Shown here: piece by piece, positions 63,527 through 64,000 of the stretch
How the letters are laid out: each line of letters opens with the position of its first letter
Numbering within the stretch: the first letter of the stretch is position 1
NCBI RefSeq assembly: GCF_058153355.1
Contig: NZ_CM177019.1
Strand: one strand, 5' to 3'
DNA: 64,000 nt
The notes under the pieces: model-generated
Seen by the model: the letters and a program-made list of their open reading frames with translations, nothing else
Told to the model about the DNA's origin: nothing
Databases searched by the model: none
Translations under genes and position numbers: made by a program

Positions 63527-63552
63527 GGCCGCAGAGTTTCACCCCTGCGGCC
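63527..63552 (-). terminator. Intrinsic terminator of ldrD (minus strand), shared convergently with bcsG
   Basis: ggccgcag-agtttcaccc-ctgcggcc, with aaaaa on the + strand immediately 5-prime of the stem, which is a U-tract for the minus-strand transcript. Confidence 0.6.
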
Positions 63553-63602
63553 TGATCCGGGCGCAAATTGCCATTACGGCAGCCTGACGCCCGCATGACA
63601 CG

Positions 63603-63710
63603 TTACTTCCGCTTATTCAGCGAGTTCACGATCAGACTGGCAAGAATGCCAGCAATGACCGGAGCCGCTAAATCATGCCAGAAGGCCATGCCCAGTTCTG
63701 CGAGCGTCAT
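63603..63710 (-). CDS. ldrD: Type I toxin LdrD (35-aa membrane-toxic peptide)
   Basis: Inside ORF 63603..63845; MTLAELGMAFWHDLAAPVIAGILASLIVNSLNKRK is near-identical to K-12 Ldr peptides as I recall them. Confidence 0.8.
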   Translation of the reverse strand: MTLAELGMAFWHDLAAPVIAGILASLIVNSLNKRK

Positions 63711-63749
63711 ATAGCCGCCTCTGTTGTAATGACAACGTTTCGCGGCTAT

Positions 63750-63820
63750 TCTTGAGTTGTTTGGGTTCAAGATTAGCCCCCGTGATGTTGTCAGGTGCAT
63801 ACCTGCAACGTGCGGGGGTT
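63750..63820 (+). ncRNA. rdlD: Putative Rdl antisense RNA (antitoxin of ldrD); coordinates approximate
   Basis: Inferred from established Ldr/Rdl organisation (Rdl is antisense to the ldr leader); I could not delimit the ends from sequence alone. Confidence 0.3.
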
Positions 63821-64000
63821 TTCTCTCTCCAGCAACCAATGCCACCAGGGATTAAGCCCCCGCAACATTGCGCCTCACCGGAACCTTTCCGGCTTGCCGC
63901 TGCTTTTACGATTGCTTTTTACCGTCAGCACCCGGCAATCTTCCTCATTGCGTGATGCCTTCCAGCTTAATTTCTTTATTTGCAATAGTTGCAGTTCATA

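Follow-up and report, generated by a model that had tools for sequence, protein, structure and literature searches.

The last part of the 64,000-nucleotide stretch of DNA analyzed here (the window) carries what is very probably the known Escherichia coli ldrD/rdlD (LDR-D) type I module, present as a single, hybrid repeat unit. The gene order is that of K-12, with bcsG followed by ldrD on the minus strand, rdlD on the plus strand, and then the yhjV-side flank, and both the position after bcsG and the strand layout are the same as in the K-12 LDR-D locus (ldrD, b4453; rdlD, b4454) described by Kawano et al. (2002). bcsG encodes a protein of 559 aa (Pfam CBP_BcsG, 784 bits) and ends at 63516, which bears out the placement of the module downstream of bcsG in an earlier, first-pass annotation of this DNA. 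Matches to this stretch occur in about 5,400 complete E. coli genomes, and in those listed ldrD and bcsG are annotated beneath the match. DNA identity to the annotated ldrD/rdlD of K-12 and LF82 is 96–98%; an alignment of 601 bp with K-12 LDR-D shows 96.3% identity, the terminator and the leader being collinear between the two. The flank up to position 64000 is collinear with the yhjV-side flank of K-12, LF82, and WL297, yhjV itself lying past the window end. The locus is thus already known, and it is unusual only in its hybrid single unit, in the loss of a signature tryptophan from the toxin, and in its relation to a hypervariable array.

The toxin gene (63603..63710, minus strand) comprises 35 codons and a stop codon, and its translation, according to both the ORF list and the sequence itself, is exactly MTLAELGMAFWHDLAAPVIAGILASLIVNSLNKRK, an LdrD-group allele with L3, L26, and S30. 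The peptide matches the Pfam Ldr_toxin profile over its full length (PF13940; 83.4 bits against a cut-off of 27, E = 1.1e-23, residues 1–35 on profile positions 1–35) as well as PDB 5LBJ, the solved structure of K-12 LdrD (E = 1e-16), so that its earlier assignment to the Ldr family stands. No NCBIfam model matched the window peptide or K-12 LdrD, nor did any match the 25-aa leader ORF described below. Read from the sequence, the PXXXG motif of the single hydrophobic transmembrane helix is retained as P17-V-I-A-G21, the charged C-terminal cluster is present and basic, ending in NKRK, and a Shine–Dalgarno (SD) sequence, GAGG (63721–63718), lies 7 nt 5′ of the ATG at 63710; it is stronger than its K-12 counterpart, CAGG.

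In relatives, the identical peptide is annotated by RefSeq as WP_000170736.1, and it is already public in at least 1,000 contigs under the name Ldr family toxin. The discovery value of the gene is therefore small, this being a textbook locus whose exact peptide is annotated in hundreds of genomes. The S30-type ORF occurs at ≥99% identity in 313 of 5,405 complete E. coli records, and its carriers include 042, IAI39, SMS-3-5, CE10, and ST648, which we take to be phylogroup D/F strains. Such an affiliation agrees with the presence in the window of the shuA/chuA 5′ UTR thermoregulator (11564–11595, minus strand; Rfam, 60.1 bits versus 58), which places within it the chu haem-uptake locus, absent from K-12 and typical of B2/D/E/F strains. 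The window also contains the region of the acid-fitness island, with the GadY (27117–27230, plus strand; 150 bits) and ES205 (21266–21337, plus strand; 105 bits) sRNAs.

An 80-aa call in the ORF track (63603..63845), starting at a GTG at 63845, overlaps the toxin gene and had been regarded as an over-extension. It is barely conceivable that this frame, or a 65-aa form initiated at the ATG at 63800, represents the true product and that the 35-aa call is truncated. In the ldrD group the frame is indeed open for 45 codons 5′ of the ldr ATG, and ATG 63800 falls midway along the RdlD target. However, ATG 63800 is missing from WL297 copy 2 and from the K-12 paralogues ldrA–C; in ldrA–C a 1-nt leader indel shifts the upstream frame relative to ldr, and in ldrA the stop codon of the upstream frame overlaps the ldr ATG. 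In addition, AGGT directly abuts ATG 63800, a spacing that is unusable, and GTG 63845 has no SD, while the Pfam profile and the structure solved for K-12 LdrD each span exactly 35 residues, the length that RefSeq also annotates in place of 80. Neither upstream start is conserved across copies, and both were rejected; the earlier judgment that the call over-extends the gene was correct.

With the 35-aa peptide as the toxin, the leader holds two further ORFs. The first encodes 25 aa (MLRGLNPWWHWLLERENPRTLQVCT; 63791..63868, minus strand). A good SD, GAGG, precedes its start codon by 4 nt, and the 3′ third of the ORF falls inside the stretch complementary to RdlD. K-12 ldrA, ldrB, and ldrD, LF82, and each of the array copies examined have this ORF intact, and ldrC has a frameshift in it. 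The second, whose frame is continuous with ldr, contains ATG 63800, a start codon that is not conserved. The literature proposes that a leader ORF, ldrX, is coupled to ldr translation in a hok/sok-like manner; the 25-aa ORF may be one candidate for ldrX.

The RdlD Antisense RNA and the ldr mRNA

The first-pass annotation expected the ldr leader to be covered by an Rdl antisense RNA that it could not delimit. A full-length RdlD, the antitoxin RNA, lies at 63759..63824 on the plus strand; its 5′ tail is single-stranded and is followed by a long hairpin and then by a U tract. It matches the Rfam rdlD model RF01813 from end to end (90.4 bits against a gathering score of 50, E = 1.5e-19, model positions 1–66 of 66) and is the only rdl copy that Rfam detects within the 64-kb window; the K-12 rdlD annotation, b4454, maps onto 63759–63822. 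Among the RefSeq records examined, RdlD is annotated only in K-12, and its placement here at 63759–63824 is accordingly of some value for annotation.

Prediction of a promoter and a terminator on the plus strand, which had been suggested as a check on the antisense RNA, succeeded in part. The terminator scan returned a terminator-like site at the 3′ end of RdlD (63802–63816, followed by GGTTTTCTCT). The promoter scan, run at a threshold of 9, returned nothing for rdlD, because the promoter that can be read from the sequence has 8 of 12 consensus matches and falls below that threshold. This predicted promoter (63724..63752, plus strand) comprises a −35 element, TTGTAA (63724–63729), a 17-bp spacer, and a −10 element, TATTCT (63747–63752), the latter 6 nt from a transcription start site, G at 63759, that is taken from the K-12 annotation. 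The promoter segment is almost invariant among the aligned copies, with one substitution each in two of them.

The predicted fold of RdlD has a free energy of −31.7 kcal/mol (z = −5.0), and across 17 distinct rdl copies 96.9% of the cells in the hairpin are paired. Every one-sided change in the hairpin yields a G-U or U-A pair on the RdlD strand, whereas the same changes produce C·A mismatches on the mRNA strand, where by our own count about 80% of the cells are paired. Because pairing is kept on the RdlD strand and broken on the mRNA strand, the structural constraint acts on the RdlD strand. Most pairs in both RdlD and the ldr mRNA are invariant, so that covariation support is thin. Relative to K-12 RdlD, the window RNA carries six substitutions in its single-stranded 5′ tail and one in the stem (A/G, 63785). 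The copies within arrays likewise vary in their RdlD 5′ tails and conserve the hairpin, which may permit copy-specific (cognate) repression, comparable to that reported for Sib/Ibs.

The promoter of the toxin gene is less readily recognized. The sigma-70 consensus scan found no promoter for it at a threshold of 9/12, and the gene has no recognizable −35 element. However, conservation between the ldrA–C and ldrD groups, whose divergence is ancient, begins abruptly at CGTAG(A/T)AT (63910–63903, minus strand), on the basis of which we infer that the −10 hexamer lies at 63903..63908 (minus strand) and the 5′ end of the mRNA near 63897, giving a putative 5′ UTR of ~187 nt (63711..63897, minus strand). 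In the window this putative hexamer reads TAAAAG, as compared with TAGAAT in K-12 ldrD and TAGTAT in ldrA–C; LF82 and the majority of last copies of arrays have TAAAAT. TAAAAG is rare: a 91-bp stretch containing it is matched exactly in only 3 of 5,379 complete genomes (WL297, 2013C-4282, and 2017-02-2CC), and a metagenome scan for a rare 51-mer with this variant gave no match. The final T, which TAAAAG lacks, is among the two most important −10 positions for sigma-70.

At the other end of the transcript, the intrinsic terminator that the first-pass annotation had ascribed to the toxin gene is present (63516..63553, minus strand). Its hairpin (63553–63526) has 11 pairs, 8 of them G-C, and is followed by TTTTTCGTTCT down to 63516, so that the T tract reaches the bcsG stop codon; among 14 paralogues the stem (columns 349–374) is invariant or varies between G-U and G-C. 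bcsG converges on the toxin gene and ends in a TAA at 63514–63516. Because no T run follows the 63516–63553 hairpin in the bcsG direction, the terminator looks unidirectional.

The putative ldr mRNA of 382 nt is predicted to fold with a free energy of −185.5 kcal/mol (z = −9.2; −182.3 kcal/mol for its K-12 equivalent). When 14 ldr mRNAs were folded jointly with RNAalifold, the consensus paired columns 192–222 with columns 290–316; in the window, this corresponds to predicted pairing of the start and early codons (63709–63679) with a segment running from the last part of the CDS into the 3′ UTR (63585..63611, minus strand). At two of these pairs, 206/306 and 208/304, the ldrD and ldrA–C groups differ by compensatory changes. 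The SD-proximal GCGGCUAU pairs with the upstream AUAGCCGC in the same consensus, in a helix that is invariant and hence uninformative. The start-codon/3′ UTR helix is thus predicted to sequester the region in which translation of the toxin is initiated, an architecture resembling that of hok. A fold-back of the 5′ end onto the 3′ end, like that involving tac and fbi in hok, appeared in the single-sequence minimum free energy structure and was not reproduced by the consensus fold; we do not claim it.

RdlD is perfectly complementary to approximately +74 to +139 of the putative ldr leader. The antisense RNA ends 48 nt from the ldr ATG and leaves the SD and the start codon of the toxin uncovered. 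This arrangement agrees with published work on K-12, in which RdlD overlaps the ldr 5′ UTR but not the ribosome-binding site. Experimental evidence on function comes from K-12 only, in which LdrD is toxic and the unstable RNA RdlD represses ldr translation, induction of LdrD brings about growth arrest and antibiotic tolerance, and RNase III-dependent double-stranded RNA forms at ldrD/rdlD; the mechanism of Ldr/Rdl repression was described as unknown in a 2021 review. By extension from K-12, the module in the window would work as follows. A minus-strand mRNA of ~380 nt, running from about 63897 to 63516, would encode Ldr, a 35-aa membrane peptide, and would fold tightly: the 3′ UTR would pair with the start codon, and a local hairpin would contain the SD. 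RdlD, 64–66 nt long and made from its own plus-strand promoter at 63724–63752, would pair with the leader, blocking toxin synthesis indirectly, and the resulting duplex would be a substrate for RNase III. Ldr that accumulated would insert in the inner membrane and arrest growth.

A Hybrid Unit from a Variable Tandem Array

In related E. coli, the gap between bcsG and yhjV is occupied by two to five ldr/rdl units with a 483-bp period (loci L003–L013, L016, and L017). The window, in contrast, holds one LDR-D repeat unit (63519..64000), which runs off the window end. The ldrD site of K-12 has no tandem array, whereas the unit in the window is array-derived: in the arrays of 042, IAI39, SMS-3-5, CE10, WL297, and R32_14_1F, the bcsG-proximal copy has the ORF, the RdlD, and the rdlD promoter of the window, and the right flank of the last copy of WL297 is identical to that of the window. 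The window could in principle have ended inside an array, a possibility that was rejected. Its last 88 bases are unique yhjV-side flank, and junctions between array copies differ from the window at 45–47 of 90 positions, so that it is not cut within an array.

Comparison with WL297 (locus L013), which has two copies, resolves the composition of the unit. The window has 0/342 mismatches to copy 1 over 63519–63860 and 0/140 mismatches to copy 2 over 63861–64000, including a C at 63903 that is unique to copy 2; the reciprocal comparisons give 15/342 and 48/140 mismatches. The unit is thus a perfect chimera of WL297 copies 1 and 2, from which it follows that at least one unit is missing and that the cross-over lies within 63861..63885, with array copy 1 to its left and the last copy and yhjV-side flank to its right. 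Copy 1 has consequently supplied the toxin ORF, RdlD, and the rdlD promoter, and the last copy the putative ldr promoter region. The loss could be the product either of unequal homologous recombination or of collapse of the array during assembly, since each would yield exactly this sequence.

We judge the chance that the single-copy state arose artefactually during assembly, with copy 1 of a real array of two or more units threaded into the flank of the last copy by way of sequence common to the copies, to be only somewhat short of even. The absence of any mismatch to either parent is what would be expected of a collapsed repeat. Moreover, no complete genome matches 63450–64000 at ≥99% identity, the three complete genomes with the rare upstream variant are all multicopy (2, 2, and 5 copies), 59 of the 60 listed S30 carriers hold two to five copies, and one draft contig (L010) breaks within the array. 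Yet collapse is not inevitable, as other draft contigs (L004, L005, and L008) resolve two to four copies correctly, and real contractions are made plausible by ST648 (CP008697; L015, 2514–2621), the one complete genome among those listed that has S30 in single copy. The ST648 unit likewise joins copy 1 to the last copy, but its breakpoint (63721–63758 in window-equivalent positions) differs from that of the window, so that it reflects an independent event, and its RdlD is of the last-copy type. Active unequal crossing-over is further indicated by the nearest relatives of the window in the bcs region (99.3–99.7% identity), which carry 3, 5, 2, 2, and 5 copies.

Whichever of the two processes produced the hybrid, ldr copy number differs among strains that are 99.3–99.7% identical in the adjacent bcs genes. 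For population biology, the ldrD site is thus a hypervariable tandem array, ranging from one to five units in strains that are nearly identical, and collapsed assemblies are not to be trusted for the number of copies it holds. In one S30 carrier (L009, 4291–5307), a DDE transposase (DUF772/DDE_Tnp_1) lies beside the ldr array in the usual place of bcsG, and no bcsG gene is called at that array.

Loss of the Signature Tryptophan and Comparison with Related Modules

The window peptide is identical to K-12 LdrD at 32 of 35 residues, the "few substitutions" anticipated by the first-pass annotation being three: F3L, M26L, and W30S. The first two are common, with L3 found in LF82 and L26 (codon CTG, 63635–63633) in many array copies and in E. 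albertii. The third (codon TCG, 63623–63621) affects a hallmark of the family. In the published analysis of the Fst/Ldr superfamily, a transmembrane helix with PXXXG is followed by a Trp and then by a charged C-terminus, and the highly conserved Trp between the helix and the charged tail is part of the signature defined by Fozo et al. (2010). The window peptide, with Ser at position 30, lacks this feature, whereas position 30 is Trp in K-12 LdrA–D, in all 26 nonedge array copies, and in 13 of the 15 cluster variants listed. The Fst prototype, however, carries Val at the Trp position and is still toxic, Trp being dispensable there; for this reason, loss of the Trp neither proves inactivity nor excludes membership of the Ldr family.

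The Ser variant follows the structure of the arrays. S30 is borne by the bcsG-proximal copy in 12 of 12 resolved arrays and by none of the 26 other copies, which carry W30. Edge copies of tandem arrays escape homogenization. In 2020CK-00188 (L011, 12603–12710), the closest relative, the S30 edge copy has an additional A9S substitution (WP_103253593.1), in agreement with edge copies gathering private substitutions. The natural series of S30 and W30 alleles could be used to ask whether the Trp matters for Ldr toxicity, and mutagenesis of LdrD is explicitly called for in the 2021 review.

To judge from the sequence, the W30S substitution may weaken the toxin arm of the module, as may the putative TAAAAG hexamer on the side of its promoter, and the two together may leave a weakened toxin arm beside an intact antitoxin arm. 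Taken further, the same features could mean that the module is decaying or has been attenuated, leaving a remnant with a weak or nontoxic S30 peptide, a crippled promoter, and no toxin–antitoxin function. The replacement of the signature W30 by Ser, the confinement of S30 to copy 1, and the rare hexamer without its final T would all fit such a remnant, but we regard it as unlikely. The ldr ORF has stayed intact, with the same peptide preserved in the at least 1,000 contigs and 313 complete genomes noted above; PXXXG and the basic C-terminus are preserved, the SD is stronger than that of K-12, and RdlD and its promoter are intact. Moreover, Fst tolerates the absence of the Trp, and the ldr −10 hexamer is itself putative.

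A more speculative reading, which we consider very unlikely, is that the S30 copy, rather than being a neutral variant at the array edge, encodes an Ldr that has diverged in function through attenuation or retargeting, and that expansion and contraction of the array act as a dosage switch. The window would then represent a contraction that left a Trp-less toxin behind a −10-defective promoter and, if this were true, a natural near-off state of the ldr/rdl system.

Beyond the ldrD group, the module shows graded likeness to other type I systems. It shares with the K-12 ldrA–C/rdlA–C modules (between kdsA and chaA) the overall layout, the leader from the −10 element onward, and the lower stem of RdlD. 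The 25-aa leader ORF is common to ldrA and ldrB, and the start-codon/3′ UTR helix, with its compensatory changes, to ldrA–C. In contrast, the apical stem of RdlD is in a different register in ldrA–C, and the leader indel described above alters the frame of the upstream ORF relative to ldr. The ldrA–C toxins constitute a different subgroup, for which the literature gives 57% identity.

The hok/sok (mok) systems of plasmid R1 and its chromosomal homologues resemble Ldr/Rdl in having a long, stable, folded toxin mRNA, in the targeting of the leader rather than the toxin ribosome-binding site by an unstable cis-antisense RNA, and in the coupling to a leader ORF that has been proposed. On the ldr leader (63708–63861, minus strand), the Rfam sok model finds a weak match over its full length (26.7 bits, E = 0.0013), which hints at a distant architectural likeness between the ldr and hok leaders. 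Membership of the hok/sok family itself was rejected, as the score of 26.7 bits compares with a gathering score of 59 and Pfam assigns the peptide to Ldr_toxin only. The Fst/RNA I–RNA II system (par of pAD1) belongs to the same toxin superfamily, and its prototype toxin, like the window peptide, lacks the Trp. Its regulation is nevertheless distinct: the antitoxin RNAs of Fst systems pair at the toxin gene's 3′ end, whereas RdlD pairs with the ldr 5′ UTR.
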